Assembly: GCA_964373795.1 (NCBI GenBank)
Contig: CAYJVY010000004.1
Span: forward strand, 30,001-62,000
Length of the DNA stretch: 32,000 nt
Direction: 5' to 3'
DNA from: an uncultured archaeon
GTDB taxonomy: Archaea; Iainarchaeota; Iainarchaeia; Iainarchaeales; DATDZZ01
The notes beneath the pieces are model-generated. The model worked only from the letters and a program-made list of their open reading frames with translations, made no database searches and was not told the origin of the DNA. This document shows positions 1,193 through 21,424 of this stretch, piece by piece (within the stretch, counting starts at the first letter, position 1; every line of letters starts with the position of its first letter). The translations under genes were made by a program, and so were the position numbers.

Positions 1193-1636
1193 TTGGAATT
1201 AGACAAGCTTGATAGAGAGATTTTGAATATTTTGCTTGAAAACTCTAAACTTGCATATAGGAAAATTGCTGAAAGAGTTGGAGTTGTACCTGCAACTGTA
1301 ATGCATAGAATTAAGAGGCTTGAAAACGAGAAAATAATCAAGAGTTATACTATAGATGTTGATACTGTTAAGACAGGATATGAATTTGAAGTATTAATTG
1401 ACATGGTTATTGATAAAGGCCAAGACTATTTAGTTTCAAGCCGAATTATTGATAATCCTCAAATTGCTAGAATTTATAAAATCACTGGAGCAATGGATGT
1501 AGAATTGGTTGCAAAATTTAAAACAAGAAAAGAATTGGATAAATTTCTTCAAACAATTCAAGAAATGGAGTACGTGAATAGAACTGAAACAAAACTGGTT
1601 TTAAACACAATTAAAAAATCCGAAGTAATAATTTAG
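1193..1636 (+). CDS. Lrp/AsnC family transcriptional regulator
   Basis: LDKLDREILNILLENSKLAYRKIAERVGVVPATVMHRIKRLENEKIIKSYT is a winged HTH, followed by an RAM/ACT-like C-terminal domain. The start codon is TTG. The 3' end overlaps orc1/cdc6 by 4 bp (convergent). Confidence 0.85.
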   Translation: MELDKLDREILNILLENSKLAYRKIAERVGVVPATVMHRIKRLENEKIIKSYTIDVDTVKTGYEFEVLIDMVIDKGQDYLVSSRIIDNPQIARIYKITGAMDVELVAKFKTRKELDKFLQTIQEMEYVNRTETKLVLNTIKKSEVII

Positions 1637-2760
1637 TCTCTTAATTCATTTAACACTAATTCTTTTGAAATCTTTAAAGAAATCATTCGAGTTTTTCCTC
1701 TCAAGTTTTCATTTAAATCAGCTGAAACCAGGTTTAAAGTATTAAGTCTTGAAATCAAATCCCTTAAACGGCGTTCAGTTAATTGTTGTTTTGACAACTT
1801 GTTAAATTTCATGTATAACTCGCCTGCAGAAATTGGTTTGAATTCTTGTGAAAGAATTTTCAGTAAAAGTTTTTCTGAATCACTTAAATGTTTTAAAAAT
1901 TTTTTTGCAGGAATGAAATCAATTACTTCAAATGCTTTTCTTAAATGCTGTAATGAAACTTTTTCAGAGTTTTCTTTTTCCGCTAAACGCCCGGCCTTTA
2001 ATAATGATTCAATTGCAATTCTGCAATCTCCTCCAAGCTTGGCTGCATGCGCCGCAGCAACATTTATTACTTCTTTTTCTAAAACATTTTCTTGAAACGC
2101 GTATTCAACTCTTTCTCTTAAAATATCTTTTAATTGTTGAGGAGAATATGGTTCAAATAAAATTCTTTCTTCAGTGAAAGAGCTTTTAACTCGTTCATCT
2201 AAATTAAAATTCATGTTCAAGTCGTTTGAAATAATTATTAATCCAACTCTTGCTTTCTTGAATTGAAAAACTCTAAGCAAGTCATACAAAATTTTTGATC
2301 CATCCTCGGATTTAAGTAATTGATCAAATTCATCTAAAACAATTAATGGAATGAAATCAATTTTTTCAAGTGATTCAAGAAAAACTGAATAAATTTCATC
2401 AGTTCCAAGGCCTCTTCTAGGAATTGCTCTTCCAAGAAAAGAAGTGATTGCACTTAAAACTGAATTACGAGTAGAATATTCAAAGCAATTAATGTAAATG
2501 CTTTTCGCGCGATCAGTGTAATCCTCTAATTCTTTTAAAACAAATCTCACTGTACAGGTTTTGCCTGTCCCAGTAGAGCCAAACACTGCAACATTTACTG
2601 GTTTTTTTCCATTAATTGCAGGTTTAAAGGCAAAAACAAGTGAATCAATTTCTTTTTCTCTGTGAGGCAAGCGTTCAGGTAAAAACTCGGGATACAAGTA
2701 AGATTCATTTTTAAAAATTTCATGAATTAAAGAACTTTCTTCAAACAAGTTTTTCTTCAT
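1633..2760 (-). CDS. orc1: Orc1/Cdc6 replication initiator (AAA+ ATPase with C-terminal winged helix)
   Basis: The N-terminus has PEFLPERLPHREKEI. Walker A is FGSTGTGKTCTV and Walker B is LIVLDEFDQL. The C-terminal winged-helix region is typical of archaeal Orc1/Cdc6. Confidence 0.92.
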   Translation of the reverse strand: MKKNLFEESSLIHEIFKNESYLYPEFLPERLPHREKEIDSLVFAFKPAINGKKPVNVAVFGSTGTGKTCTVRFVLKELEDYTDRAKSIYINCFEYSTRNSVLSAITSFLGRAIPRRGLGTDEIYSVFLESLEKIDFIPLIVLDEFDQLLKSEDGSKILYDLLRVFQFKKARVGLIIISNDLNMNFNLDERVKSSFTEERILFEPYSPQQLKDILRERVEYAFQENVLEKEVINVAAAHAAKLGGDCRIAIESLLKAGRLAEKENSEKVSLQHLRKAFEVIDFIPAKKFLKHLSDSEKLLLKILSQEFKPISAGELYMKFNKLSKQQLTERRLRDLISRLNTLNLVSADLNENLRGKTRMISLKISKELVLNELRD

Positions 2761-2840
2761 TTAATACACTTAAAATAAATATAAAAGACTAGTATAAATT
2801 CATTTGGTTCAAAAACTTTTTGATTTAATGCATTAAAGTT

Positions 2841-2887
2841 TTTCCTGCGGGAATTTTCACCGGAAATTTACTCCTCCGAATTCTTTT
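2841..2887. promoter_or_regulatory. Three tandem GC-containing dyad boxes resembling mini-ORB (origin recognition box) cores, next to an AT-rich stretch
   Basis: The boxes are TTCCTGCGGGAA (2842-2853), TTTCACCGGAAA (2855-2866) and CTCCTCCGAATTC (2871-2883). The first two each match 9 of 12 positions of the TTCCAGTGGAAA-type dyad, which I recall from memory from characterised archaeal origins. They lie in the 153-bp gap directly upstream of orc1/cdc6. Confidence 0.35.
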
Positions 2888-2913
2888 AAAAGGCTGGAAA
2901 GCTTTTTTCTTTT

Positions 2914-4464
2914 ATGACTCCCTTAGCTCCCAATTTAAGTACAGTGTACTTAACTAGTGTAAAATATTTTCCGGAAAAAAAAGAAGTATTAATTGAGTAC
3001 TCTAATTTGAGGGAAAAAATTACTCAAAAGCAAGTGTTTTTCCCTAAATTTTATTTTTCTTTAAAAGACATAAATGAAAATCTTTTCATTGAATTGCTTT
3101 CATTATATGATTCAAGAAAAATTAGAATTGAAAAAATTAATGAAATAGTGAAGGTTACTGCAAAGGATTTCACTGAATTGAAAAAAATTGCTAATTTAAT
3201 TAATTTTTCTTTAAAAAAACAGCCATTAATTTTGGGCCCGGAACGACAGTTTTTAATTGAAAACAATTTAAGTTATTTTGACTCATTTGCTTTAGAAAAA
3301 AATGGTTTAAAAAAAATAGAGTCTTTAGCAATTCCTGAAATTAAATTAGAATTTTTAACTTCGCCTTTAAATGATTCAGTTAAAGAATTGCTTTCAATTA
3401 ATTCTGAGACAACTGAAAAACTCGTGAACTCAGTTATTTACTCTAATTTGTTGTGCATGCCAGTTAATGAATTGCCTTCAAAAAATTCTTTGTTAATTGA
3501 ATTGTTTTTGGAGAAAATGTTTTTCAAACACGAATTTGATTTAAGTAAAGAGGAAAAAAAAGAGTTTTATTCAAGCGAGTTTCCTAAAAATTTAAGGCTT
3601 GAAAAAGATTTAACTGAAATTGATTTTTCATTTGTTTGGCCAACGCTTTTAAGCAAGTCTTTTTACAATATTGGATTTGAATCAATTAACTGTAAATGCT
3701 GTAAAACAAGTGACTTCAATGCAGAAAATGTCTTGCCTAATTCTTTAATTGAAGTAGAATTTCTTTCAGAAGGAACCTATTTTGAATCAAATAACATTAA
3801 ATGGAGAAAAGAGTTCCATGAAAAGCGTTCAGGGAAAGAGGAAAGGCTTAGAATGCAGAAAGAGTTTTACTTAAACTCTATTCCTATAGGGCCATTCAAT
3901 AAAGGAGTGAAAGAATTAATTCCTTTAACTGATGTAAAAAATTTATTGAAGAAAAACCAAGTAAGAATTTTATCAAATCATGGGCTTTACTGGTTTTGCG
4001 AGAAACGTGAAGCATTTTTATCTAAAGAAATTAATTCATTAAATGCTTTGCTTGAAAAAGTTTCAATTAAATGCAGTGAATTTGAAGAACGTTTTTTAAA
4101 AGAATTTAATTTAATGTCTTCAAATAAATTGCTTGAAAACCCTGAATTCTTTTACTTGAAATGCTTGAAAGAAGTTTTAAGTGAATTAATTTGTTTTACT
4201 CCGACTCACTTGTTTTCAGTTAACTCTAAGTTTTATTCAACTCAATTAACTGAAATAATTAAAACAATTCAAATTCAAACAATTAAAGAATTCCAAGAAT
4301 TCAGTAAAATTAAGGGAGCGAAATTCATTAACTTTAACAATTACAAGACATTCATTAACTCGGATTCAACGCTTAAATTGTTGAAAAACTTTTCTTTAAA
4401 ACAAAACATTCCCTTGCCGAAAATCAAGTTCTTTAAAACCAAGACTCATAATCCAAGCCACTAG
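2914..4464 (+). CDS. B-family DNA polymerase homologue lacking the 3'-5' exonuclease domain and the motif C catalytic aspartates (predicted catalytically inactive)
   Basis: The protein shows collinear PolB landmarks. The N-terminal domain has FFPKFYFSL and LGPERQFLIENNL, followed by LIELFLEK. A YxGG-like EFYSSEF is at aa 217-223. Motif A EIDFSFVWPTLL (D237) matches DxxxLYPS. Motif B-like QKEFYLNSIPIG matches KxxxNSxYG. Motif C RILSNHGLYW (aa 351-360) has SNH where YxDTDG has DTD. The spacing from motif A to motif B is 84 aa, as in Pfu-type PolB. No ExoI/II/III motifs are present, and the protein is only 516 aa versus about 775. Confidence 0.6.
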   Translation: MTPLAPNLSTVYLTSVKYFPEKKEVLIEYSNLREKITQKQVFFPKFYFSLKDINENLFIELLSLYDSRKIRIEKINEIVKVTAKDFTELKKIANLINFSLKKQPLILGPERQFLIENNLSYFDSFALEKNGLKKIESLAIPEIKLEFLTSPLNDSVKELLSINSETTEKLVNSVIYSNLLCMPVNELPSKNSLLIELFLEKMFFKHEFDLSKEEKKEFYSSEFPKNLRLEKDLTEIDFSFVWPTLLSKSFYNIGFESINCKCCKTSDFNAENVLPNSLIEVEFLSEGTYFESNNIKWRKEFHEKRSGKEERLRMQKEFYLNSIPIGPFNKGVKELIPLTDVKNLLKKNQVRILSNHGLYWFCEKREAFLSKEINSLNALLEKVSIKCSEFEERFLKEFNLMSSNKLLENPEFFYLKCLKEVLSELICFTPTHLFSVNSKFYSTQLTEIIKTIQIQTIKEFQEFSKIKGAKFINFNNYKTFINSDSTLKLLKNFSLKQNIPLPKIKFFKTKTHNPSH

Positions 4465-4540
4465 ATTTAAATATTTTTCTTTGTGTTAATACGTATATCA
4501 TTGGAAGTTATATTGCTGTTTTTTATTCCGAGTGTTGTTA

Positions 4541-4747
4541 ATGGTTAAACTAACTAGATTTGAAGTCACTAGATTGATTAGTGCTAGAGCAGTTCAATTG
4601 GCATTGGGAGCGCCTCAATTAGTTCAAGCTGAAGGAAATATTTCAATGGAAGACATAGCTAAACTTGAATTAAAGGAAAAGGTTTTACCTTTATCTGTTT
4701 TAAGGCAGCTTCCAACTGGGCAAATTCAAAGAATTGAAGTAATGTAA
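4541..4747 (+). CDS. rpoK: DNA-directed RNA polymerase subunit K (Rpo6 / Rpb6 homologue)
   Basis: LTRFEVTRLISARAVQLALGAPQLV matches the conserved Rpb6/RpoK core. The ATG at 4541 is preferred over the track's GTG at 4532. Confidence 0.9.
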   Translation: MVKLTRFEVTRLISARAVQLALGAPQLVQAEGNISMEDIAKLELKEKVLPLSVLRQLPTGQIQRIEVM

Positions 4748-4756
4748 AGTGATTTA

Positions 4757-4948
4757 ATGGGTAAAGCAGTTCCAAAAATAATTAAAAGCCGTGCAGAGTA
4801 TTTATTAAAAAAATTTCCTGAAAAATTTTCTAAAGACTTTGCAAAAAACAAGTTATCTTTAACTGAATTACATTTACCTTTATCACCTGTTTCAAGAAAC
4901 ATTCTCGCAGCTTTTATTGGAAGACAAAAAGCAAAAGAACAAGTTTAA
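4757..4948 (+). CDS. rps17e: 30S ribosomal protein eS17 (S17e)
   Basis: MGKAVPKIIKSRAEYLLKKFPEKFSKDFAKNK...SRNILAAFIGR follows the archaeal S17e pattern, and the 63-aa size is typical. Confidence 0.85.
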   Translation: MGKAVPKIIKSRAEYLLKKFPEKFSKDFAKNKLSLTELHLPLSPVSRNILAAFIGRQKAKEQV

Positions 4949-4999
4949 CCTAATTTGAAAACATTTTTATTTTTCTTCAATTTTGAAGTGGATAAATAA

Positions 5000-5446
5000 A
5001 TGAGTAAATTAAAACTTTCAAGTCCTTTTTTTGCAAATAATGCAAGAATTCCAGACAAATTTACTTGTAAAGGAGTAAATGTAAATCCCTTGCTAGAAAT
5101 TGAAGGAGTTCCTGAAAACACTAAAAGTTTTGCATTAATTGTTGACGATCCAGATGCTCCAATGAAGACATGGGTTCACTGGGTTTTATGGAATATTTCT
5201 CCAAGCACTAAAAAAATTGAAGAAAACTCTGTTCCAAAAGAAGCAATGCAAGGGGTAACAGATTTTGGTGAAAACAGGTATGGCGGGCCATGTCCTCCAA
5301 GCGGAACTCACAGGTATTTCTTTAAATTATATGCATTAAATTCAACTCTAAATATTTCAAAGAATTCAAAAAAAGAAGATTTAGAAAAAGCAATGCAAAG
5401 CCATATTTTAGCTCAAACTCAATTAATTGGTTTATACAGCAAATAA
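5000..5446 (+). CDS. PEBP family protein (YbhB/YbcL-type phosphatidylethanolamine-binding protein)
   Basis: IVDDPDAP...WVHWVLWNI...YGGPCPPSGTHRYFFKLYAL is the PEBP signature. Confidence 0.9.
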   Translation: MSKLKLSSPFFANNARIPDKFTCKGVNVNPLLEIEGVPENTKSFALIVDDPDAPMKTWVHWVLWNISPSTKKIEENSVPKEAMQGVTDFGENRYGGPCPPSGTHRYFFKLYALNSTLNISKNSKKEDLEKAMQSHILAQTQLIGLYSK

Positions 5447-5555
5447 TTATTAAATTTTCAGTGCCTAAAAAAATGCCTTACAAAAACAAAACCTATTTAT
5501 AATTGACACAGTATTGTTTTTCTATGAACTTTGAATTGAAGTTATTTTCAATTGC

Positions 5556-5629
5556 CTTAATTTTTTTAATTACTTTACTTAAATCAATCAAAACAACAAT
5601 GCTCCAAATTTAATATTAGTAATACTATA
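5556..5629 (-). repeat. Inverted, non-functional copy of the cca promoter-proximal region plus the first 15 codons (copy A of a 74-bp inverted repeat)
   Basis: The reverse complement of 5556-5629 equals 11564-11637 at 73 of 74 positions. The single mismatch (5598 versus 11595) turns the ATG into ATT. Weaker similarity continues for about 20 nt further. Confidence 0.95.
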
Positions 5630-5964
5630 TTCCTAAATTTAAGTTTGAAACTTCTTCATTTATTTCAAAAATTCTTGCAAAAATGGGGATGCCTACAGCT
5701 TTTTCTGCTGAAGCAGATTTTTCTGGAATTGATGGATCAAAAAATCTTAGTATTAATGAAGTAATTCACAAAGCTTTTGTTGAAGTGAATGAGGAAGGAA
5801 CAGAAGCAGCTGCAGCAACTGCTGTTACAATTGGGATAACTTCTGTTGGCCCACCATTAAATGAATTTAGAGCAGATCATCCATTTATTTTCTTAATTCA
5901 AGAAAAAGAAACTGGAAGCATTTTGTTTTTAGGAAAAGTTGTTGACCCAACTCAAACCAATTAA
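5623..5964 (+). pseudogene. Serpin gene remnant: only the C-terminal ~113 codons, including the reactive-centre loop
   Basis: The frame opens at 5623 and reads IPKFKFETSSFISKILAKMGMPTAFSAEADFSGI...VIHKAFVEVNEEGTEAAAATAV...FRADHPFIFLIQEKETGSILFLGKVVDP. These are the serpin hinge/RCL and C-terminal signatures. About 270 N-terminal residues of a normal serpin are missing. The upstream sequence is the cca-derived repeat. Confidence 0.85.
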
Positions 5965-7688
5965 ATTAATTTTTTGCTTACGTAAACTCCGTCTTGAGTA
6001 TAACCAAATTTTTTATAGTATGCTCGAGCACCAATTCCTGAAATAATGCATAACTTTTTTGCATCAAATTTTTCTCTAGAAATTTTTTCAGCTTCTTCTA
6101 AAAGCTTTTGTCCAAAACCTTTATGTTGAACTGCATCAAAACTTTTTTCTCCTAAAGCAAGTGCTTGACCATAAACATGCAGTTCTCGAATTCCTAAAGT
6201 GTTTTCAGTTATTTCTTTCCTAAAAGGCTTGAATGGAATTCGCAATCTGCAGAAACCTAAAAGCAAGTCATTTACAGTATCTTCAACTGAAATAAAGATT
6301 TCTTCAGAATTATTTGCTTCAAAAGATTCACTTAATATTTTCACTGCATTGAAATCAATTTCTTTTCCTTTTGGTTCTCTGCATCTAATGCATTTACATT
6401 TAATTCCAAGCTCTTTTTGCTTTAATTCAACGAATTGCCTTAAATTAGTGTTTTCAACTCCTGCTTCTGTTTGATTAGTTGGGATATCTCGTTGAATTCT
6501 CATTACTCTGCAATATTTTGGAATAAATCTTTTTCCTTCAGCAATTATTTTAGCTGCTTGTTCAGTTGAAATTGGATTAAATAATCCTTTTTCCCATAAT
6601 TGATGTAACCCTGTTCCTTGTAAAACCATGCAAGGATAAATCTTTAACGAGTCAGGCTTGAAGTCAGGGTTTGAAAATAATTCTTTAAATTCTTGGACGT
6701 TTTTCTCAGGAGTGGAATCAGGCAAGCCAGGCATTAAATGATAACCTATTTTTAAAAACGAGTCACGCATTAATTGAGTTGCTTTAATTGAGTCTTCAAC
6801 TGAATGCCCTCTATTTGTTTTCTTCAAAATTTTGTTTTCAAGCGATTGAACCCCTATTTCAACTCTAGTAGTTCCTAATTCAAGCATTTCATTAATATGT
6901 TTTTCAAAGCAATTATCTGGCTTTGTTTCAATGCATAAAGCAACACATTTAATTCTGCTTTCAAATTCATTTCTTTTTTGCTCGAATTTTAAATCCGCTT
7001 CTCCTTTTAATGTTAAAAGCTTTGAATTAATTCTTTCATTTCTTTCCTTTGACTTAATGTCTTGAAAAGGCAATTCAAAGAATTCATTAAATTTTTTAAA
7101 ATCAATTTCATTTTTATTGTAAAAGGTTTCAGAAAAATCATTCAATGCTTTAAAAATGTTTGAAACAAATTCAATTTGATAAGTTCTAGACATTGCAGGA
7201 AAAGTTCCTCCTTGAATTATTACTTCAATTTTTTCAGGGCAATGCCCTAAAGCAGTATAAGTTTCTAATCTGTTCATTGCAATTAAATAAGAATCATAAT
7301 TATTGCGAATTGCTCTCATTGTTGAAGGTTCTTTTCCTGTATAACTTTGAGGTACGTCTCCAAACGGAGAATTCAATCCGCCTGGACAAAAAATGCAAGT
7401 GCCATGAGGACAATTAAATGGTTTTGTCATGCAAGCAATTGTTGCAACTCCTGAAATAGTTCGCACAGGTTTCATTAACAAGATTTCTTTAACCTTTTTT
7501 CCACTGCCTTCAGAAAAAGAAAAAATACTTGAATTAGTTGGAACTTTTTCAATTCCTATTTCAACACACAGAGTTCTTTTTCGTTTACTGAATTGATCTC
7601 TATTACTTATTTTTCCTTCTTGAATTTCTTTAATTATTTGTTCACTAAATTTTTTCAGTTTCAAGTCAAGCAATGCAATTGAAGTCAT
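5961..7688 (-). CDS. elp3: Elp3 homologue (radical SAM plus GNAT acetyltransferase; tRNA U34 carboxymethylation)
   Basis: The radical SAM cluster region is CPHGTCIFCPGG. The TIM-barrel core has VEIGVQS. The C-terminal GNAT domain has QHKGFGQKLLEEAEKI. The length is 575 aa. Confidence 0.92.
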   Translation of the reverse strand: MTSIALLDLKLKKFSEQIIKEIQEGKISNRDQFSKRKRTLCVEIGIEKVPTNSSIFSFSEGSGKKVKEILLMKPVRTISGVATIACMTKPFNCPHGTCIFCPGGLNSPFGDVPQSYTGKEPSTMRAIRNNYDSYLIAMNRLETYTALGHCPEKIEVIIQGGTFPAMSRTYQIEFVSNIFKALNDFSETFYNKNEIDFKKFNEFFELPFQDIKSKERNERINSKLLTLKGEADLKFEQKRNEFESRIKCVALCIETKPDNCFEKHINEMLELGTTRVEIGVQSLENKILKKTNRGHSVEDSIKATQLMRDSFLKIGYHLMPGLPDSTPEKNVQEFKELFSNPDFKPDSLKIYPCMVLQGTGLHQLWEKGLFNPISTEQAAKIIAEGKRFIPKYCRVMRIQRDIPTNQTEAGVENTNLRQFVELKQKELGIKCKCIRCREPKGKEIDFNAVKILSESFEANNSEEIFISVEDTVNDLLLGFCRLRIPFKPFRKEITENTLGIRELHVYGQALALGEKSFDAVQHKGFGQKLLEEAEKISREKFDAKKLCIISGIGARAYYKKFGYTQDGVYVSKKLI

Positions 7689-7709
7689 TCAAAACACAAC
7701 TAAATTTAG

Positions 7710-8522
7710 TTATTGAAATAAAAAACTTATAAAAGAATTAAATAAATAAAACGAAAGCATTGAAGGAGAAAAAACAGGCAATCCAGTCAAAGCTGCTTCG
7801 AATTTTTTCTTTAAAACTGGTTGAACAGTTAATTCAATTGGAATTAAATCAATTAATTCTCCATTTGAAACAGATTCAACTTTAAACTTGAATTGCTTTA
7901 ATCCATAAATTCTCGGATTAACTTTTAATTGAACTTCTTTTTTTTCACCTGCTTTTAATTCAAATTCTTTTTCTTCAAACCATAGTTTCTCTAAATCACT
8001 TGAAACCTTTAATTTGTGATCTGCAATTGAATTGTTAACTAAAGTTAAGTTAAAAGTTGTTTCCTCTCCTACAAAAGTTTTTTTCACTGTTTCAGGCAAG
8101 CTAATTGAAACCAATCCTTTTTTTACAGGAATTCTAATTTTAATTGATTCTGATTCAAGCAAGTTTTTTTCATCAACTGCTTTTACTTTAAACTCATATT
8201 CTTTGTTTGCTTCAGCATCTTTTGCAACAAGTACTTGCACTTCAAACACTTTTTGGTTTTTCTCTGAATCAATTGCTCTCCAATTTTTTGGAAGAGAATC
8301 TTTTTCAACAATTATTTGACTCCATTTAGTGTTAACAGTTGAAACCCCTGGATCGTTTGAAATTTTAAAAGAAAAAGTTTCTCCTGGTTGAACTGCATTC
8401 AATAAATGCCTTTCATTTGGTTGGTATGAAAATTTTTGAGTTTCAGTTATAACACTAATTAAGGCAAGGCCTTGCATTGAAAAAGCAAGCAAGAACACTA
8501 AAACTAAGAGTTTTTTTAACAT
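7710..8522 (-). CDS. Hypothetical cell-surface protein (signal peptide, beta-rich Ig/CARDB-like repeats, C-terminal hydrophobic anchor)
   Basis: The N-terminus is MLKKLLVLVFLLAFSMQGLA. The body is beta-rich with K/E/V-rich repeats. The C-terminal hydrophobic tail is LPVFSPSMLSFYLFNSFISFLF. Confidence 0.6.
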   Translation of the reverse strand: MLKKLLVLVFLLAFSMQGLALISVITETQKFSYQPNERHLLNAVQPGETFSFKISNDPGVSTVNTKWSQIIVEKDSLPKNWRAIDSEKNQKVFEVQVLVAKDAEANKEYEFKVKAVDEKNLLESESIKIRIPVKKGLVSISLPETVKKTFVGEETTFNLTLVNNSIADHKLKVSSDLEKLWFEEKEFELKAGEKKEVQLKVNPRIYGLKQFKFKVESVSNGELIDLIPIELTVQPVLKKKFEAALTGLPVFSPSMLSFYLFNSFISFLFQ

Positions 8523-8590
8523 TGTTATCCTACAATAATTTACTATAACAATACTTTTAAAGAATTACTGAAAAACAAAAAGTGATTTAA

Positions 8591-9190
8591 TTGACTAAAA
8601 ACATTGAAGAAATCAGGTTTGAAATGGTTAAAAAAAGGCATTCAGAAAGCCTTTCAAAAGCCATTAAAGAAGGAAAAGCAGATGAAAGAGTTATTCCTTT
8701 CCTGAAAAAAATTGCTGAAACACAAAATTTTTTTACTTCTTCTAGTTGTTGTGGAAGAATTTTATTACTCGGCTTGAAAGGAAAAGGATTAAAAAAAGAC
8801 TCTTATTTTCACTTCAAAAAACATAGAACTGTTTCATTCAAAGAAATTTGGGGTTCTCTTCAAAAAAAATCAATCGGAGTTTTATGGTTTAAAATAGAGC
8901 CATTCATTTTACACATTGGAGCAAAAAATTTAGAGAACACTGAAAGAATTTTAAAAGTAATGAAGGAAAGCGGAATAAAAAGAGGAGGAATAATTGTTAC
9001 AAAAAAAGGAAAATTCTTAACAGAATTACTTGGCACTCAAATGCTTTCAGTTCCAGTAAAAGAAAAAAACAAAATCTTAATTGAAAAAAAATTCTTAAAA
9101 TACTTAATTAAAATTGCAAACAAAAAATTAATTGAAAACTACAATTTATTGAAAAAATTTGAAGAACAATGCTTAAAAGAATTCGACTAA
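8591..9190 (+). CDS. taw3: tRNA wyosine-derivative methyltransferase Taw3/TYW3 family
   Basis: FFTSSSCCGRILLL matches the TYW3 family hallmark (T/S)SSC(S/C)GRI. The ~200-aa size is typical. The start codon is TTG. Confidence 0.75.
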   Translation: MTKNIEEIRFEMVKKRHSESLSKAIKEGKADERVIPFLKKIAETQNFFTSSSCCGRILLLGLKGKGLKKDSYFHFKKHRTVSFKEIWGSLQKKSIGVLWFKIEPFILHIGAKNLENTERILKVMKESGIKRGGIIVTKKGKFLTELLGTQMLSVPVKEKNKILIEKKFLKYLIKIANKKLIENYNLLKKFEEQCLKEFD

Positions 9191-9372
9191 CACGCCGTTC
9201 AGCCGGCGAGGCTGAGTCAAAAGCCGGCGAGGCTGAGTGTTCGTGTTGGCATCGCGCTTGCCGCGCAAGACGGCAGCTGAAAGTCGATGTCGGCCTCGTG
9301 TCGACGCACGAGACATCGCAGCCGACAAAGCTGAGGCAAGCGTCGAACGTGAAGCCGACGAAGCTGAACCCC
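9191..9372 (+). other. GC-rich (63%) repeat- and hairpin-dense intergenic island; candidate structured ncRNA or GC-cluster element of unknown class
   Basis: I counted 113 G/C in positions 9191-9370. There are four direct copies of AGCCGRCRARGCTGAR at 9201, 9222, 9320 and 9353. An interrupted hairpin spans 9285-9318 and a second hairpin spans 9257-9269. A closing helix pairs GTTCAGC (9197-9203) with GCTGAAC (9363-9369). The strand is assigned only because both neighbouring genes are on +. Confidence 0.5.
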
Positions 9373-9399
9373 TCATATGATTTGAGAAGTGAAACTTAA

Positions 9400-9921
9400 A
9401 TGAATAAAAGATTGTTTTTAGCAATTAATTTGCCTTTAGAATTAAAGGAAAAAATTTTTGAAACTTTTTCGAAAAAATTGCCAAAAGATTTAAAGATTGT
9501 GAAAAAAGAAAACATTCATTTAACACTGCTTTTTATAGGGTATTATCCTGAAGAAAAAATCGCAGAATTAAAGGAAAAACTTTCAGAAATCGAATTCAAT
9601 TCATTTGAATTAAAGTTAAACTCTCTTGGAACTTTTAATGGAAGAGTTATCTGGCTTGGAGCTGTAAAAGGAAAAGAAAAATTCAAGGAATTAAGTGAAA
9701 AAATTCAGGAAAAAATCGGAGTAAAAGATAATAGAATTTCCGCTCATTTAACTTTGGCTAGAAACAAGTTTTTGAAATTAAAAGAAATAAAAGAGTTGAT
9801 TTCAAAAATTAATGCAGGCTTTAATGAAACAATTTTAGTGAAAAGCTTTGAATTAATGGAATCCAAATTAACTCCTAAAGGATCAATTTATTTTATTGAA
9901 GCCAGTTTTAAGTTAACATAA
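9400..9921 (+). CDS. thpR: RNA 2',3'-cyclic phosphodiesterase / 2'-5' RNA ligase family (2H phosphoesterase, ThpR/LigT)
   Basis: Two HxT motifs are present at the canonical spacing: IHLTLLFIG and AHLTLAR. The length is 173 aa. Confidence 0.88.
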   Translation: MNKRLFLAINLPLELKEKIFETFSKKLPKDLKIVKKENIHLTLLFIGYYPEEKIAELKEKLSEIEFNSFELKLNSLGTFNGRVIWLGAVKGKEKFKELSEKIQEKIGVKDNRISAHLTLARNKFLKLKEIKELISKINAGFNETILVKSFELMESKLTPKGSIYFIEASFKLT

Positions 9922-11481
9922 TTAGGTTTTAGCAATTTTATCTAAAACTGCTTCTTCATTGAAATAGTATTCTTGAATTATTTTTTCAACATCTGGATCG
10001 AATGAAATGTTTTGTTGCTGCATCCATTCCAGAATGCGTTGCCTTATAACTATTTCATCTTTTAATGCCTTTTTATTTAACCCTGTTTTCTCGCTTAATT
10101 CTTGCATTACATGGCTTGGAACATCAGTTCTATAAATTGTTTCTTTTGCTGGATCAAATTCAAAAATATTTCCAAGTAAAACTTTTTCACCCATTCTGCT
10201 TACCTCTGTTACTTGACTAACTCTTCTAATCATTCCTTTTTCTCTGTCAAAAATTCTTTGAGTTACAACAATTAAGTCAAGCAAGGGAAGCATTTGTTCA
10301 GGAACATTCATTGGAGGATTTTTTAATCTAATAATCATTTCATTAGCATTATTAGAATGCAGTGTACCCATTATTCCTTTATGACCTGTATCCATTGCAA
10401 CAAACAATGTTTCAGCTTCTGAGCCTCGAACTTCTCCAACAATTATTCTATCAGGGCGCATTCTCAAAGAATTTTTTAACAAGTCATCCATGGTAACTTC
10501 AGGGATTTCTCTAGTAGGAGGGTGCGTTTCCATTTGAATCCAATTATCTCTTTCACCTAAACTTATTTCAATAGTGTCTTCAATTGAAATAATTCTCTCC
10601 CTATAAGGAATTAAAGTCGTTAACGCGTCAAGTAAAGTTGTTTTCCCTGAACCAGTTCCTCCAGTAATAATCATATTCATTGGCTCAATTCCTTTTCCTT
10701 CAACCATTAACCAAAGAAAAGCTGCTAACTCGCTTGAAATAGTTTTATTATTAATTAAATCAATAATTGAAATAGGTGAATAACTAAATTTTCTAATAGT
10801 TAAAGAAGTTCCAAAAGGAGTTATACTTGGATAAGTAGCATTTGCTCTAGAGCCATCTGGAAGCCTTGCATTCAATAAAGGATACTGAGAAGAAAATTTT
10901 CTACTAGAATAATTTGAAATCCTTATTGCAAGATCCAAAATTGCTCCATCGTGTTTTGGAACAAAAATATTTGTTTTACAAAAACCAAACTTTCTATGAT
11001 AAACAAAAATGTTTTTGTTTTCTCCATTCACCATTATTTCCTCTAACTGTGTTTCCCTCATTAAAGGAGATAAAACATCATACCCAATAGTGAAATCAAT
11101 TATTTTGTTTACAACTGTTGCAATATTTTTAATTGAATCTTTTTGACGAGTTAAAATCGGAAGTAAGTCAACCTTAAATTTTTTAACAAAATTCGAGGAA
11201 GGTAGTTTTTCAAATAATTTTTCTTCTTCAATTTTTTTAGAGGTTTCCTCTAACACTTTTTTTTCTTCAGAGTTAAGTTTGCCAAAATGTTTTTCAAGCT
11301 CAGTTAAAGAAGCCTTCTTAAGAAAAAAATCTTGCAATAATTTAACAACTTTTTCCTCTTGCTCTGAAATAACTGGATCAACTACTTCAAAAAAATTGTA
11401 AGGAAATCCTTCAAAGATATTTGATTCAGGGAAAGACTGCACTTTTTTTCCTTTAAAGAATTCAAACCTATTTTCAGTCAT
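9922..11481 (-). CDS. Type II/IV secretion-system ATPase (archaeal FlaI/ArlI-PilB-VirB11 family)
   Basis: Walker A is ITGGTGSGKTTLLDAL. The Asp box/Walker B region is RIISIEDTIE ... PDRIIVGEVRG. The His box is MGTLHSN. No FlaJ/TadC-like platform gene is adjacent. Confidence 0.9.
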   Translation of the reverse strand: MTENRFEFFKGKKVQSFPESNIFEGFPYNFFEVVDPVISEQEEKVVKLLQDFFLKKASLTELEKHFGKLNSEEKKVLEETSKKIEEEKLFEKLPSSNFVKKFKVDLLPILTRQKDSIKNIATVVNKIIDFTIGYDVLSPLMRETQLEEIMVNGENKNIFVYHRKFGFCKTNIFVPKHDGAILDLAIRISNYSSRKFSSQYPLLNARLPDGSRANATYPSITPFGTSLTIRKFSYSPISIIDLINNKTISSELAAFLWLMVEGKGIEPMNMIITGGTGSGKTTLLDALTTLIPYRERIISIEDTIEISLGERDNWIQMETHPPTREIPEVTMDDLLKNSLRMRPDRIIVGEVRGSEAETLFVAMDTGHKGIMGTLHSNNANEMIIRLKNPPMNVPEQMLPLLDLIVVTQRIFDREKGMIRRVSQVTEVSRMGEKVLLGNIFEFDPAKETIYRTDVPSHVMQELSEKTGLNKKALKDEIVIRQRILEWMQQQNISFDPDVEKIIQEYYFNEEAVLDKIAKT

Positions 11482-11563
11482 ACAATAAATTAATGAATTA
11501 ATAAATATTTAAACGTTGCTTTAAATTTGCTGCAAACAAGGAAAGAAAACTTAAATATAGTTC

Positions 11564-11637
11564 TATAGTATTACTAATATTAAATTTGGAGCATGGTTGT
11601 TTTGATTGATTTAAGTAAAGTAATTAAAAAAATTAAG
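11564..11637 (+). repeat. Copy B of the 74-bp inverted repeat (29 bp upstream of cca plus its first 45 nt)
   Basis: See the feature at 5556-5629. This copy contains a TATA-like tatagtatt, an SD-like ggag and the functional cca ATG at 11593. Confidence 0.95.
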
Positions 11638-12978
11638 CCAAGTGAATCAGAGTTAAAAGAAGAAAAAAAAATAGTAAAAGAATTAACTGAAAAAATTCGC
11701 TTAATTGAAGGCAAGCACTTAGACATTGTATTAGCTGGATCAATTAGTAGGGAAACTCATTTGAAGGGAGATAGAGACATTGACTTATTTATTTTATTTG
11801 ATAAAGCTTTATCCAGAGAAGAATTTGAAAAAGAAGGTTTAAGAATTGCGAAAACCGTTTTCAGAGGATTTAAATGGGAAAAAGCTTTTTCAGAACACCC
11901 ATACATTAGAGGAGAAATTAAAGGATTCAAAATCGAAATAGTTCCATCATATAAAATTTCCGATACAAGTGAATTACAATCAGCTGTTGATAGAACTCCT
12001 TTTCACACAAAATATTTATTACAACATTTAAGAGAAGAACAAAAAGACGAAGTCAGATTATTAAGACAATTCTTAAAAGGCATTAAATGCTATGGAGCTG
12101 ATTTAAAGACAAGCAGTTTTTCAGGATATATGACTGAATTAATTATTTTAAAGTATGGAAGTTTTTTGAATGCGTTAAAAGCTGCAAGTGAATGGAGTAA
12201 AGGAGAAGTAATTGATTTAGAAAACTTTTACTCTGCAGAAGAAGCTAGAAAAAAATTTAATTCTCATTTCATTGTATTAGATCCAACTGATAAAAATAGA
12301 AATGTTGCAGGAGCTCTAGCATTCAATCAATTTTGTAGACTTATTGCTGCTTCTCGCATGTTTTTAATCAAGCCTTCAGAAAAATTCTTTTTTGGATTAA
12401 AAGAAAAGTCTTTAAATGAAAAAAAAGTAAAACAGTTACTGGAAAAAGAAGACTTAATTGGAATTGAATTAGGTTATCCAAAAAAAGTTATTTCAGACGT
12501 TGTTTGGGGGCAAATTAAGAGGCTGAGAAAAAAAATTGAAAGCGAGTTAACTTTAAATGAGTTTCAAGTAATTAGAGCAGACGATTGGACTGATGAAAAA
12601 AAGCTTGTAGTTATTTTAATTGAAGTTGAAAATGAATTAATTCAACAAATTCATAAAAGAATTGGCCCAGAAATAACTGATAAAAAGAATTCTGAAATGT
12701 TTTTAAAAGCACATTTAAACCCTTTCACCGGGCCAAGAATTGAAAATGGTAGATGGGTTGTTGAAGTGAAAAGAAAATATTTTTCCTCGCAAAAATTACT
12801 TCAAGATTTGTTAAAAAATTATAAGAAAAACTCTAAAGAAACAATTAAAAAATCCTTAAACAAAAAAACAAGAATTTTATTCAAACAAGACATTATTTCA
12901 TTGTATAAAAAAAATAAAGAATTTCAAGAATATTTTACTAAATTCTTAAAAGGAAGAGAAGAATTTTTAGAGTACTAA
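11593..12978 (+). CDS. cca: CCA-adding enzyme (archaeal class I tRNA nucleotidyltransferase)
   Basis: LAGSISRETHLKGDRDIDLFILF is the class I nucleotidyltransferase motif. RTPFHT is also present. The 461-aa length and overall architecture are typical of archaeal Cca. Confidence 0.9.
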   Translation: MVVLIDLSKVIKKIKPSESELKEEKKIVKELTEKIRLIEGKHLDIVLAGSISRETHLKGDRDIDLFILFDKALSREEFEKEGLRIAKTVFRGFKWEKAFSEHPYIRGEIKGFKIEIVPSYKISDTSELQSAVDRTPFHTKYLLQHLREEQKDEVRLLRQFLKGIKCYGADLKTSSFSGYMTELIILKYGSFLNALKAASEWSKGEVIDLENFYSAEEARKKFNSHFIVLDPTDKNRNVAGALAFNQFCRLIAASRMFLIKPSEKFFFGLKEKSLNEKKVKQLLEKEDLIGIELGYPKKVISDVVWGQIKRLRKKIESELTLNEFQVIRADDWTDEKKLVVILIEVENELIQQIHKRIGPEITDKKNSEMFLKAHLNPFTGPRIENGRWVVEVKRKYFSSQKLLQDLLKNYKKNSKETIKKSLNKKTRILFKQDIISLYKKNKEFQEYFTKFLKGREEFLEY

Positions 12979-12988
12979 TTAAGAGTAC

Positions 12989-13597
12989 TTAATCGATTAC
13001 TGCAATTACTCTGCATGGAGCGCCATCAGCTTCTTCAATCTTTAAAGGCATAACATAACAAGTGAATTGCTTGCCTAAAAGTTGTTCTAAATTAACTAAG
13101 TTTTCTAGGATTAGTATGTTTTTTCTCATGAGAATTTTGTGTATTTCATAAGGTGGATTATCAGGAGAAAAAGAATCCATGCCAACAATTCTTACTTTTT
13201 TCTTCACAAGCTCTTCAGCAGTCTTCCTTGACAGTACTGGATTGTTTTCAAAAAAATCTTCAGAATATAGTTTCTTTGAATGATTTGTGCAAAACAAAAC
13301 AATGTCATCTTTTTTTATATTATTCAAATCTACTTTAATTTCTTTTTGTCCTCGTACATCTAATACAATTGCTTTTCCAATAAATGTTTTAATTGGAAAT
13401 TCATCAAGTTTCTTTCCCTCTGCCAGCATATGAAAAGGAGCATCAATATGAGTTGAAAAATGAGAATTAAATGAAATTCTTTTTTCATTCCAACCATCTT
13501 TTTCAATTGTTGCAAATTGCTTAATTTCTTGTTTTGGATCTTCTGGAAAAGAAGGAGTTCTATTATTTATTGGCATTGTTAAATCAAATATTTTCAT
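12989..13597 (-). CDS. Cyclase-family protein (kynurenine formamidase-like)
   Basis: HFSTHIDAPFHM matches the HxGTHxDxPxH metal-binding motif of the putative cyclase family. The length is 202 aa. Confidence 0.8.
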   Translation of the reverse strand: MKIFDLTMPINNRTPSFPEDPKQEIKQFATIEKDGWNEKRISFNSHFSTHIDAPFHMLAEGKKLDEFPIKTFIGKAIVLDVRGQKEIKVDLNNIKKDDIVLFCTNHSKKLYSEDFFENNPVLSRKTAEELVKKKVRIVGMDSFSPDNPPYEIHKILMRKNILILENLVNLEQLLGKQFTCYVMPLKIEEADGAPCRVIAVID

Positions 13598-13648
13598 AGT
13601 ATAACCAACTAATAAAATTTTTTAAAAATTTTGCGAACGACGTGCAAA

Positions 13649-13723
13649 CGAGCCTGGTGGGATTCGAACCCACGATCCCGTCGTCCGAAGCGACGTGCGA
13701 TATCCAGACTACGCTACAGGCCC
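13649..13723 (-). tRNA. tRNA-Arg (anticodon UCG); the 3' CCA is not encoded
   Basis: The minus-strand sequence folds as a cloverleaf. The acceptor stem is GGGCCTG/CAGGCTC with one G-U pair. The anticodon stem CGTCG/CGACG carries the loop CTTCGGA, giving anticodon TCG. The T arm is GTGGG-TTCGAAT-CCCAC. The discriminator is G, followed by TTTG rather than CCA. No intron is present. Confidence 0.9.
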
Positions 13724-13725
13724 AC

Positions 13726-14114: not shown

Positions 14115-14375
14115 ATGGGAAAAATTTTAGTAATATATAAAATTAATGCAAAAGATTTAGACAAATTAGATGAAACAGTTAAAGCAGTTAAAGGAATTAA
14201 AAACGGAGAAGTAAAAGACGTTAAAAGAGAACCAATTGGTTTTGGAGTTGAAGTAATTAAAGCTGCAATACTAATTCCAGAAAAAGATGATGCAATTTTA
14301 AACAAAGTAACAGAAGAAATTAATTCACTAAAACTAGTTGAAGACGCTGAAGTAGAATTAATGACTCTACTTTAA
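14115..14375 (+). CDS. ef1b: Translation elongation factor aEF-1 beta
   Basis: At 86 aa, the sequence MGKILVIYKI...REPIGFGVEVIKAAILIPEKDD...VEDAEVELMTLL follows the aEF-1beta pattern. Confidence 0.85.
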   Translation: MGKILVIYKINAKDLDKLDETVKAVKGIKNGEVKDVKREPIGFGVEVIKAAILIPEKDDAILNKVTEEINSLKLVEDAEVELMTLL

Positions 14376-14377
14376 AG

Positions 14378-15091
14378 CTATTTCTTTTTCTTTGACATTT
14401 TCCACAAAAAATTAAACAAAGATAAATTGCTTTGAGTTACATCTTTATTTTCAATAACAATTCCAAAAGGAGGAGTAGTCCAAATAAAGAGGCTAGTCTT
14501 ATTTCCATAAGTCCAAGTAGAAATTTTTGAAATAAATTCTTTTGAGATAAATCTATATATTTCTGTTTTTGCAGTTACAAATTTTGCATCTTCATTACAA
14601 ATTAGTTTACCTTTTATACTTAATCTTTCCACTTGCTTAAGCCATTGTAGAATGTATGGATCTATTTCTGTGAAAAACTTTTCAACTTCTCCAATAAAAG
14701 TGTAAGGCTTTTTTTCTCTTAAAATATCTTTCATTATTGTTTTTAGGCCTTCTTTGCCTTTATACAATTCTATTTTTGATTCTTCTTTTGGCAAAGACAT
14801 TAGTTTTTCTAGTTCAGGCACGATTATTTCCGTTTGTTTTAGTTTTTCTTTTAGATCATCACAAAGCTTTGTAGGGTGTGCTGCGTTGAAATATGTTATA
14901 TTATTAGTTATAAAAGAGCTTACAAGACCTTTTTCTGTTAAAACAGCTAGAAACCTATAGGTTGTTGCCCTGTCAATATTTGTTTCAGAAGCAATTTTTG
15001 TAGCAGTTGATACGCCGAATCTAAGTAATACTAAATAAATTTTGATTTCCTGTTCAGATAAACCAATTTTTCTTAAAATAGTTGTATCCAT
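14378..15091 (-). CDS. TrmB family transcriptional regulator
   Basis: LGLSEQEIKIYLVLLRFGVSTATKIASETNIDRATTYRFLAVLTEKGLV is the TrmB-type winged HTH, followed by a TrmB-like C-terminal domain. Confidence 0.85.
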   Translation of the reverse strand: MDTTILRKIGLSEQEIKIYLVLLRFGVSTATKIASETNIDRATTYRFLAVLTEKGLVSSFITNNITYFNAAHPTKLCDDLKEKLKQTEIIVPELEKLMSLPKEESKIELYKGKEGLKTIMKDILREKKPYTFIGEVEKFFTEIDPYILQWLKQVERLSIKGKLICNEDAKFVTAKTEIYRFISKEFISKISTWTYGNKTSLFIWTTPPFGIVIENKDVTQSNLSLFNFLWKMSKKKK

Positions 15092-18038: not shown

Positions 18039-18461
18039 TTGAATAGAATTCAATTATCTGGTTGTGCAATAATTCAAGAAGAAAAAATTCTTGCATTATT
18101 TAAAACCTCAAGAAAATACTTTGAACTCCCAGGAGGAAAAGTAGAAGCAAACGAATCACTTGAAGAGACAGCTAAAAGAGAATGCTTTGAAGAACTTGGT
18201 TGTAAAATTAAGTTAAAAAAATATTTAGGTAATTGGAAGTTTTCAATAGGCAAACAAAGATTTGCTTCACATACTTTTTCAGCTTCTTTTGAAAAAAATT
18301 GTAAACCAAAATTAATGGAGCCACATAAATTCAGTGAATTGAAATGGATTAAAATAAAAGAATTTAAAAAATTTAAATTAGCTCCAAACCTAAAACAATT
18401 TTGTAAAGATTATTTAAGTGGAAAATTGAGGCCGCTGCTCGGCGAGCGAACGACAGTTTAG
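18039..18461 (+). CDS. NUDIX hydrolase
   Basis: The Nudix box is GGKVEANESLEETAKRECFEELG. The TTG start is 3 nt after the rad50 stop. The last ~10 codons (RPLLGERTTV) are encoded by a short GC-rich hairpin-forming cluster. Confidence 0.85.
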   Translation: MNRIQLSGCAIIQEEKILALFKTSRKYFELPGGKVEANESLEETAKRECFEELGCKIKLKKYLGNWKFSIGKQRFASHTFSASFEKNCKPKLMEPHKFSELKWIKIKEFKKFKLAPNLKQFCKDYLSGKLRPLLGERTTV

Positions 18462-18470: not shown

Positions 18471-19460
18471 TTAATTTAATATTCTTATTTTATATCCTTT
18501 CTCTTTTTGAGCTCTGTATTCATTAAATTCTTCTCCAAATTTTGAATCTAAATCGCTTACTTGCATTATTTTTCCTTCTTGTAAAAATTTGGGGTTAACT
18601 GCTCTGAATTTGGAGAATGCATGAAAATCGAATTCTTTTTCATTGAATACACGAACTGCATTAAATCTTGGAGAAAGCATTTTAATTTTTTCAAGTATTA
18701 AGGAATTGTTTGACTTAAGTAATTTGTTTAAAACAAATTCATCTGTTTCAAATAAATCTTTTTCAGTTAAAACTTTTTTCTCTAAAGCTTCTTTAATTGC
18801 TTCTGCAAGTATGTGATAGGCTGCTTCAAAAATTGGGTTGCTCCAAAAACCTTTATCTAAAGCCATGTAATCTAAAGCAAATTCTTTTGCGGAATAAAAG
18901 TCTTTGAAAACAAATTCGTTTTCAAAAACAGTTAAACTTGAAATAAAGTTGTGAACTCTTTTAACGGGTTTTTGAATGTCATGAATAATTGAGTGAAAAG
19001 AGTAGTCAAGTCTATCTGCACATAAATCAGGTAGATTTCTTTCCAGTAAACCAAAATTTTTTTCATTCAAAATTTCTTTAACATTAAATCCATGTTTTTC
19101 TAAAATTAAAGGAATATCTGATTGAAAAACAATTTTTTCTTTAAAATTTTCATGGGAGTTATGGTTTTTGTTTTCAAACACTACGTCAATTACATGAGAG
19201 AAAGCTGTATGTGAAACGTCATGCAGTAATCCAGCTACTTGTTCTTCTAAAGATGCATTAAATTTCCTCAACAGACAAAAAACACCTAAGGAATGATCAA
19301 ATCTACTGAAATCAGGGATTGAAAGAAGGAAATGTTGCACGCCGTTTTGGTTTATTTTTTTAAGTCTTTGCAAGGCAGTTGTTTCAAGTAATTCTAAAAC
19401 AACTGGTTCACTAATTTTTTTAATGCCATAAATTTCTTCAGTTAAACTCATAAAAAACAC
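18471..19460 (-). CDS. HD-domain metal-dependent phosphohydrolase (COG1078-like)
   Basis: The sequence LQRLKKINQ...FSRFDHSLGVFCLL...LLHDVSHTAFSHV shows the HD motif and an N-terminal pattern typical of this HD subfamily (COG number from memory). Confidence 0.75.
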   Translation of the reverse strand: MFFMSLTEEIYGIKKISEPVVLELLETTALQRLKKINQNGVQHFLLSIPDFSRFDHSLGVFCLLRKFNASLEEQVAGLLHDVSHTAFSHVIDVVFENKNHNSHENFKEKIVFQSDIPLILEKHGFNVKEILNEKNFGLLERNLPDLCADRLDYSFHSIIHDIQKPVKRVHNFISSLTVFENEFVFKDFYSAKEFALDYMALDKGFWSNPIFEAAYHILAEAIKEALEKKVLTEKDLFETDEFVLNKLLKSNNSLILEKIKMLSPRFNAVRVFNEKEFDFHAFSKFRAVNPKFLQEGKIMQVSDLDSKFGEEFNEYRAQKEKGYKIRILN

Positions 19461-19574
19461 TTTTAAACACTTTTTTAATCTACATAACCAGATTCTATTA
19501 ATATATAATATATATAAAATTAATATATTAATATATTTTTAATTCAATATATTTAGATTTTTTGGAGTGAATTT

Positions 19575-21049: not shown

Positions 21050-21424
21050 ATGCTTGAATTATTAATTGCTGTTTTGAGTTTAGTTATTGGCATTCTATTA
21101 ATTGCTTTAATTCTTTTATTCAAAAAACTCAAATTCTTGGAACAAAAATTCAGCGAATTAAGTTTTGAAAAATCAAGTCAATCAGTTAAGTATGGAAAGC
21201 TTACAGAGCAATGGATTCCTTTCACTGAAAAATTTCCTTTCAATCCACAAGACTTTCATTTTCTTGGCAATCCAATTGATGGAGTAGTGTTTGATGAAAA
21301 CAAAATTGTTTTCACTGAATTCAAAACCAATACTTCTCAGTTAAGTGAAAAACAAAAACACATTAAAGAATTAGTTAAAAACAAGCAAATTGAATGGCTG
21401 GAATTCAAAATTCGCGAACAATGA
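21050..21424 (+). CDS. Membrane-anchored endonuclease related to the archaeal Holliday-junction resolvase (PF10107/COG4741-like)
   Basis: The N-terminal TM helix is LLIAVLSLVIGILLIALILLF. The remainder, GKLTEQWIPFTEKFPFNPQDFHFLGNPIDGVVFDENKIVFTEFKTNTSQLSEKQKHIKELVKNKQIEW, matches the family pattern as I recall it from memory. Confidence 0.65.
   Translation: MLELLIAVLSLVIGILLIALILLFKKLKFLEQKFSELSFEKSSQSVKYGKLTEQWIPFTEKFPFNPQDFHFLGNPIDGVVFDENKIVFTEFKTNTSQLSEKQKHIKELVKNKQIEWLEFKIREQ

Follow-up and report, generated by a model that had tools for sequence, protein, structure and literature searches.

How did two copies of the start of one gene come to face each other across several kilobases of archaeal DNA, and do they mark an inversion, a genetic switch or something else? 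The question is raised by a stretch of 32,000 nucleotides (32 kb; about 29% G+C) of contig CAYJVY010000004.1, which belongs to an uncultured DPANN archaeon of the Iainarchaeota and is referred to below, at its full length, as the window. It contains cca, the gene of the CCA-adding enzyme, and 5.9 kb away an inverted, near-perfect copy of the cca 5' end, situated among the remains of a serpin gene. The native 5' end is called copy B and its inverted counterpart copy A. An initial annotation had read the pair as the trace of a recent rearrangement, either an inversion or a duplication, with breakpoints in the cca 5' end and inside the serpin gene. The reading that we favour, with moderate confidence, is that copy A is a repair scar in the serpin gene, in which a deletion was bridged by an inverted templated insertion. 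Such an insertion would result from a template switch resembling synthesis-dependent microhomology-mediated end joining (SD-MMEJ) or microhomology-mediated break-induced replication (MMBIR). The scar looks ordinary, and it looks like neither the end of an inversion nor a genetic switch.

The inverted repeat and its donor

The two copies and the donor gene comprise the following features.

5556-5629, minus strand: copy A, a putative inverted templated copy of 29 nt of the cca 5' leader and of cca codons 1-15 (translation IVVLIDLSKVIKKIK)
11547-11646, plus strand: copy B, the donor, native cca promoter/leader and first 15 codons (core 11564-11637)
11550-11559: likely cca TATA box, outside the 74-nt core
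11593-12978, plus strand: cca, archaeal CCA-adding enzyme, 461 aa, intact (PF09249, PF21133, PF01909)

In-register alignment of both sites bears out the inverted duplication as first described: the reverse complement of 5556-5629 equals 11564-11637 at 73 of 74 positions, and the sole mismatch in this core (A at 5598, G at 11595) turns the ATG into ATT on the copy A strand. Loss of the copied start codon could be due to chance (3 of the 74 positions) or to a copying error. The longest tracts of exact identity within the core measure 42 and 31 nt only. Similarity in the same register extends to 5547-5646 versus 11547-11646, a pair of 100 nt with 93% identity (blastn E = 4e-39), beyond which identity falls to background at once. 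The translation shows no cca homology to the left of copy A past codon 15.

No other large repeat occurs in the window, where the second-best inverted pair is 41 nt long at 71% identity. Searched with up to three mismatches, a 38-mer from the core matched these two sites of the window only; 100 shuffles produced no match. The possibility, raised at the outset, that the 74-mer is a high-copy repeat was pursued in wider collections: beyond the two copies in the window none was found in JGI metagenome contigs, IMG/VR or 128 fetched loci, the remainder of the source genome lying outside this search. A comparable repeat was found in no relative. The arms gave no Rfam match, and their folding z-scores were not significant.

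Copy B does consist of the 29 nt upstream of the cca ATG (11593) and 15 codons. Residues 1-16 of the enzyme (MVVLIDLSKVIKKIKP) align to the N-termini of relatives, which read ...(E/K)ILKKI(K/T/S)P..., and residues 9-16 (KVIKKIKP) are homologous to them. The closest of these relatives are encoded in Iainarchaeota/DPANN metagenome bins and reach at most 61% protein identity. The divergent pair of a secretion ATPase gene (minus strand) and cca (plus strand) recurs in 20 fetched loci at a comparable intergenic distance. Because codons 9-16 are homologous to those of relatives and the ATPase|cca adjacency is shared by these 20 loci, comparison shows copy B to be the original and copy A the derivative, copying having proceeded from B to A. 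The donor gene is intact and keeps its conserved N-terminus and its ancestral neighbours.

The pairing of a T2SSE/FlaI-like secretion ATPase with a divergent cca (9922-12978 in the window) is seen across Iainarchaeota and some Micrarchaeota (20 loci: L002-L020, L029, L030, L034, where L numbers are our handles for loci and contigs). Two of the cca homologues are possible pseudogenes or contain sequencing errors, namely that of L003 (about 4840), with an in-frame stop near codon 33, and that of L030 (6044-6077), which is split over two frames.

Orientation of the enclosed block

The segment between the copies, 5630-11563, has the gene content that was first described for it. Genes were assigned by Pfam, and five of them form a syntenic block (5961-11481) that is conserved in relatives.

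5961-7688, minus strand: Elp3
7710-8522, minus strand: Ig-like surface protein
8591-9190, plus strand: TYW3
9400-9921, plus strand: ThpR/LigT
9922-11481, minus strand: T2SSE-family ATPase

Synteny was determined by tblastn of window proteins against the loci of relatives. The order and strands of Elp3(-), Ig-like(-), TYW3(+), ThpR(+), ATPase(-) and cca(+) are the same in eight Iainarchaeota loci (L002, L003, L004, L008, L013, L015, L018, L020; L003 is counted although its contig end cuts Elp3). Five further loci (L011, L014, L016, L017, L030) have the identical order without a match to ThpR, and L016 also lacks a match to the Ig-like protein. Since order and strands are those of related loci, this comparison shows that the 5.9-kb block has kept its ancestral orientation with respect to cca. 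Had an inversion broken the DNA in the cca 5' end, the ATPase gene and cca would no longer be neighbours; their adjacency is intact, and an inversion of this kind is unsupported. Of the two events initially envisaged, the inversion must consequently be given up in view of the ancestral block, and the duplication, tied to the serpin gene, is retained.

The disrupted serpin gene

Copy A lies between two pieces that can be assigned, with unequal certainty, to one serpin gene.

5494-5502, plus strand: TATA-like element tatttataa, likely the original serpin promoter, 22-30 nt upstream of the ATG at 5524
5524-5555, plus strand: putative serpin 5' remnant MNFELKLFSIA, about 11 codons, ending at the left junction and in the frame of the serpin 3' part
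5626-5964, plus strand: serpin 3' remnant, ~112 codons including the reactive-centre loop region (longest ATG open reading frame (ORF) 5683-5964, 93 aa)

The truncated serpin frame opens at 5623, as had been noted. The 3' remnant corresponds to positions 283-370 of the 370 positions of the Pfam Serpin family (E = 6e-32), keeps all 41 invariant alignment columns and contains neither a stop nor a frameshift in its ~112 codons. Full-length serpin relatives from metagenome contigs (398-431 aa) align to the window only from residue ~287-321 on, and for eight of nine full-length queries the tblastn alignment starts at exactly 5626, which places the beginning of serpin-derived sequence inside the last bases of the 74-nt core. 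At this point the serpin consensus reads VDVY-x-PKFKFETKY and the window YYIPKFKFETSS. With the same nine full-length serpins as tblastn queries, no remnant of the N-terminal part (~300 residues) was detected anywhere in the 32 kb. No exact match is on record for the 93-aa serpin ORF, nor for the cca, Elp3, ATPase and ThpR proteins.

On the 5' side, the element at 5494-5502 agrees in spacing and sequence with the TATA-like elements that precede Cdc6, TrmB, the ATPase and PGM in the window. Nearly all of about 60 full-length serpin relatives have a signal or anchor peptide at the N-terminus, often starting MN.... The reading frame that starts at ATG 5524 runs into copy A, where it meets stops at 5611, 5617 and 5620. 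The two sides of the putative deletion thus differ in weight: the 3' side is clearly serpin from residue ~305, and the 5' side offers a promoter, an ATG and 11 codons in frame, too short a piece to prove serpin origin. We infer that 5524-5555 is the serpin's own start. The sequence is most simply read as a single serpin gene of which both ends have kept their place and collinearity, about 290 codons (~0.9 kb) between them having been replaced by ~70-74 nt of inverted cca 5' sequence.

Three statements of the initial annotation are affected. Copy A had been called non-coding; it is more accurately placed inside the remains of a serpin gene, between the likely start at 5524 and the 3' part, and the proposed link between the serpin truncation and the duplication gains support from this position. 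The idea that the end of copy A at the serpin frame was an inversion breakpoint does not survive, serpin-like sequence apparently lying on both sides, collinear and in frame. It had also been remarked that a simple flip of the enclosed segment does not restore the serpin, and this is upheld.

One mismatch in 74 nt and an undecayed serpin remnant, with ~112 codons and 41 invariant columns preserved, make the event look recent. A recent duplication derived from cca had been suggested on the strength of the near-identity, and both the 73/74 identity and the native cca N-terminus in copy B are in line with it.

Candidates for other arrangements of the serpin gene were rejected. The missing N-terminal part does not lie at the far end of an inversion, where a 326-aa ORF (18471-19451) encodes an HD-domain protein and its neighbour a NUDIX protein. 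The PEBP gene that precedes the serpin remains in the window is not its conserved partner, as no PEBP gene occurs within 4 kb of any of 80 serpin loci. Neither PEBP nor serpin genes were found within 10 kb of cca in 39 relatives.

Serpin remnants truncated at the 5' end were also observed inside long contigs of unrelated organisms (L041/L042, 3950-4477; L045, 3830-4546), with homology from residue ~239 or ~176 of a ~410-aa serpin. One truncated version of 158 aa is identical in contigs from four sources. C-terminal relics or mini-ORFs of serpins seem to recur.

Homeology at the junctions

Short imperfect homologies adjoin the core on either side.

5547-5555, plus strand: left junction microhomeology, TTCAaTTGc versus TTCAcTTGg beside copy B, 7 of 9
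5630-5646, plus strand: right junction microhomeology, serpin coding sequence (IPKFKF) versus the reverse complement of the cca TATA region, 13 of 17 (13 of 14 over 5633-5646)

Against random register pairs sampled from the window, at least 13 of 17 matches have a probability of 2.2e-4 and at least 7 of 9 a probability of 5.5e-3, and the seven mismatches of the 100-nt pair pile up at its edges, six of them in the outer 26 nt (P = 0.0017). The homeology at the junctions is non-random. Both presumed switch points accordingly show microhomology, imperfect in either case, and a 4-nt TATA overlap is possible at 5626-5629. The PKFKFE motif at the right junction is conserved in serpin relatives. As judged from the aligned sites, the pattern is that of a freshly copied core bounded by pre-existing imperfect homology, which on the right side demonstrably belongs to the recipient, the serpin gene. 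A microhomology-guided template switch (MMBIR model, PMC2621351) or synthesis-dependent end joining would be expected to leave such a pattern.

A candidate templated repair scar

These features can be assembled into one sequence of steps. A break, or the collapse of a replication fork, would have struck a gene for a secreted serpin located downstream of the PEBP gene and convergent with Elp3. The stretch from codon ~11 to residue ~305, about 290 codons (~0.9 kb), would have been lost. A short stretch of imperfect homology could then have allowed a 3' end to pair with the cca promoter/5' region, 5.9 kb away on the opposite strand, which would have served as template for roughly 74-90 nt. The new strand would finally have re-annealed to the other serpin end at the second short homeology and the TATA microhomology. 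In such a course the donor ATPase|cca junction stays unchanged and the 5.9-kb block never needs to invert. That deletion and insertion were a single event, and that the enzymology was of the SD-MMEJ type or of the fork stalling and template switching (FoSTeS)/MMBIR type, is suggested by the combined pattern.

Precedents exist for the individual elements. Microhomology-mediated end joining (MMEJ) is an experimentally shown route of break repair in archaea (PMC5435918, PMC12281630), and MMBIR is defined by template switches at microhomology and by short templated segments (PMC2621351).

Several points weigh against this history. The 5' remnant of the serpin comprises only 11 codons, and its identity derives from context, homology being unprovable at this length. 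Within the source genome, the search for the serpin N-terminal part and for further copies of the repeat covered the 32-kb window. Only the post-event allele is represented, and the history may have comprised several steps. The MMEJ products of Haloferax are deletions, with no templated insertions reported (PMC12281630). Finally, the bases that adjoin the core are mismatched (5555; 5630-5632), so that priming from a perfect 3' end alone fails to explain the exact sequence, and heteroduplex correction, mismatch extension or later mutation has to be invoked. These core-adjacent mismatches do not allow the exact priming and annealing steps to be reconstructed.

Alternative histories

The insertion and the deletion might have been separate events, or the duplication older and larger. 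A cca copy of ~100 nt or more would then have entered independently of the deletion, or an old core would have been kept identical by gene conversion, a process that between short repeats also produces a high-identity core with decaying edges. A history of this kind is unlikely, even though no history can be dated from one genome. Its decaying edges are contradicted by the right flank: 5630-5646 encodes the conserved serpin motif IPKFKFE and is therefore serpin sequence, not decayed cca. Similarity moreover ends abruptly at 100 nt, the serpin remnant shows none of the decay expected of an old event, and two independent events at one nucleotide would be less parsimonious.

Very unlikely, in our estimation, is an inversion through staggered breaks, in which the serpin gene was broken and the cca 5' end was cut with a stagger of 74 nt; fill-in would have duplicated the staggered stretch in inverted form at both ends. 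Under this mechanism (PMC1885836), a segment is predicted to be flanked by short inverted duplicates of unique sequence; such duplicates are present here, and one of the arms adjoins a disrupted gene. The mechanism equally predicts an inverted interior and a broken donor junction, whereas the block and the ATPase|cca pair are ancestral. The data can be accommodated only with a later flip-back by recombination between the arms and a ~0.9-kb serpin deletion beside copy A, and the ancestral block thus raises the number of events from one to three. No serpin N-terminal part lies at either arm, and in-register homeology in the flanks is not expected from the fill-in of staggered nicks.

The window stems from a metagenome bin, and its relatives are all metagenome-assembled genomes, which brings a chimeric join or a collapsed repeat into consideration. 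We regard an assembly artefact as highly improbable. The copies differ at one internal base, and neither of their stretches of perfect identity (42 and 31 nt) is as long as a read or a final assembler k-mer. The sequence on either side of each copy is unique. The outer flanks, continuing into the arms, were recovered in Logan contigs of two other sequencing runs: L001 (ERR4904391) is identical to 2747-5577 (100%), and L127 (ERR3478686) matches 23597-11608 at 99.98%, ending exactly 30 nt into arm B (k-1 for k = 31), as expected at a true repeat. The end of L001 at 5577 falls 8 nt short of the expected k = 31 graph break, and other Logan contigs also end inside unique genes. The junctions between outer flanks and arms are alike in either orientation, so that the Logan contigs are silent on the orientation of the inner block.

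That the 5.9-kb block is switched by inversion between the arms, or that copy A serves as a second cca-type promoter for an antisense or regulatory transcript over the serpin and the PEBP 3' region, is the most improbable of the alternatives: the promoter-proximal sequence and start of cca lie within arm B and would survive a flip, and copy A with its flank still holds TATA-like and GGAG elements, by chance, but the 32 kb contain no invertase, integrase or transposase, the cargo consists of six conserved housekeeping genes in ancestral synteny, the arms have neither significant RNA structure nor an Rfam match nor a counterpart in any relative, and exact identity is confined to the 42- and 31-nt tracts.

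The absence of recombinases and transposases from the window, already stated in the initial annotation, is corroborated by Pfam scans of all ORFs of at least 70 aa in the 32 kb; the only nuclease-like gene is a conserved Hjc-like resolvase homologue (21050-21424). An insertion sequence or composite transposon was likewise rejected, there being no transposase, two copies in the window only, and a cargo of ancestral syntenic genes. Homologous recombination between the arms might in principle flip the segment; nothing observed points to such flipping or to a function of the repeat.

A separate inversion and neighbouring features

The templated repair scar favoured here is regarded as distinct from a larger rearrangement that emerges when the whole window is compared with relatives. 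The genes outside the enclosed block are listed below.

1633-2760, minus strand: Cdc6/Orc1
2914-4464, plus strand: 516-aa protein, no Pfam family
4532-4747, plus strand: Rpb6
4757-4948, plus strand: S17e
5000-5446, plus strand: PEBP
12989-13597, minus strand: cyclase
13648-13724, minus strand: tRNA-Arg (TCG)
14115-14375, plus strand: EF1B
14378-15091, minus strand: TrmB
15637-18036, plus strand: Rad50-like protein
18039-18461, plus strand: NUDIX
18471-19451, minus strand: HD-domain protein

In relatives (L004, L008 and L020, with small variations in L013-L017) an ABCE1-like gene, an eRF1/Pelota-like gene, an Hjc-like gene and a homologue of the window gene w19575 are followed by the group from Elp3 to cca, EF1B and the Rad50-like gene, and then by S17e, Rpb6 and the 516-aa protein. 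In the window, the 516-aa protein, Rpb6 and S17e precede Elp3, and w19575, Hjc-like, eRF1-like and ABCE1 come after the Rad50-like gene. Relative to every related Iainarchaeota locus compared (L004, L008, L013-L017 and L020), the central block of the window (~13 kb, from about 5000/5961 to 18036) is inverted with respect to both flanks. The inverted block probably includes the PEBP gene and the serpin. Lineage-specific genes occupy both junctions, PEBP and the serpin remnant the left one and the NUDIX and HD-domain genes the right one, and blastn within the window revealed no repeats above noise at the breakpoints. As the cca 5' end lies in the middle of this block and not at its ends, the ~13-kb inversion is treated as an event separate from the scar.

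Further observations concern the surroundings of this inversion. At its right junction, the NUDIX ORF ends, directly ahead of the HD gene, in a short G+C-rich patch (ggccgctgctcggcgagcgaacgacag, 18430-18456), and an AT-rich near-palindrome with tatata/aatata runs (19494-19557) lies next to the junction in the promoter region upstream of w19575. Some genes have no counterpart at their position in relatives and look like lineage-specific insertions, namely the cyclase and tRNA-Arg(TCG) genes between cca and EF1B (12989-13724), TrmB between EF1B and the Rad50-like gene (14378-15091), and a 349-aa ORF between w19575 and the Hjc-like gene (19962-21011). The Orc1/Cdc6 gene (1633-2913 region) has an AT-rich upstream intergenic region, and there may be a replication origin a few kb away from the scar.

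The six-gene block from Elp3 to cca is strongly syntenic and rich in genes for tRNA modification and RNA repair (Elp3, TYW3, ThpR, cca). Between TYW3 and ThpR, where relatives have 10-20 nt, the window contains an island of ~200 nt with ~60% G+C (9191-9390), which carries four copies of a motif like AGCCGRCGARGCTGA. The island has no Rfam match, and the folding energy of its plus strand is -81 kcal/mol (z = -2.5). Logan contig L128, which stems from another run, ends exactly 30 nt into the island, which would fit a multi-copy element.

Comparison with known systems

The main value of the analysis lies in a correction: the repeat marks neither an inversion nor a switch, and the genes that it encloses are ancestrally arranged. 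For annotators, the 93-aa 'serpin' ORF should be taken as a remnant. The repeat is also a potential recombination substrate around essential tRNA-modification genes.

Inverted repeats that flank a DNA segment are shared with invertons of the Hin/Gin/Fim type. The present locus differs from these in that it has no recombinase, its arms derive from a gene start, its cargo consists of conserved housekeeping genes and two orientations are without support. In quasipalindrome formation by short-range template switching (Ripley model), the nascent strand copies the opposite strand and generates an inverted repeat of tens of bases at one hairpin-prone site. An inverted repeat is the common outcome, but in the scar the template lies 5.9 kb away and its use would be coupled to a 0.9-kb deletion.

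The inversions described in Drosophila by Ranz et al. (2007; PMC1885836) resemble the locus in that several genes are enclosed by a pair of short inverted copies of non-mobile, unique sequence, one copy being a gene-fragment relic. In contrast to these inversions, the segment bracketed here is not inverted relative to the ancestor, and the donor junction is intact on both sides.

Templated insertions of the SD-MMEJ and FoSTeS/MMBIR type (Hastings et al., 2009; PMC2621351) share with the scar a short copy from a nearby locus, here inverted, that bridges a deletion (a presumed one in the scar), an unchanged donor, and microhomology or homeology at both junctions. The scar stands apart from them by its DPANN host, its fairly long insert (74-90 nt), a template 5.9 kb away and the mismatched bases next to the core. 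This host is not known to possess Pol theta. The experimental MMEJ products described so far in archaea are plain deletions (PMC12281630, PMC5435918). It is quite unlikely that the locus is both a natural record of long-range, MMBIR/SD-MMEJ-like template-switch repair in a DPANN archaeon of the Iainarchaeota and a place where the 100-nt repeat lets a six-gene block flip by homologous recombination in the population. Inverted templated insertions are not reported among the outcomes of the archaeal MMEJ experiments consulted (PMC12281630, PMC5435918). The scar represents a known kind of mutation and leaves the current understanding of any system unchanged; it offers a clean, datable templated inverted filler in an archaeon whose genome is tiny and whose repair toolkit is reduced, and hints at template-switch repair there.

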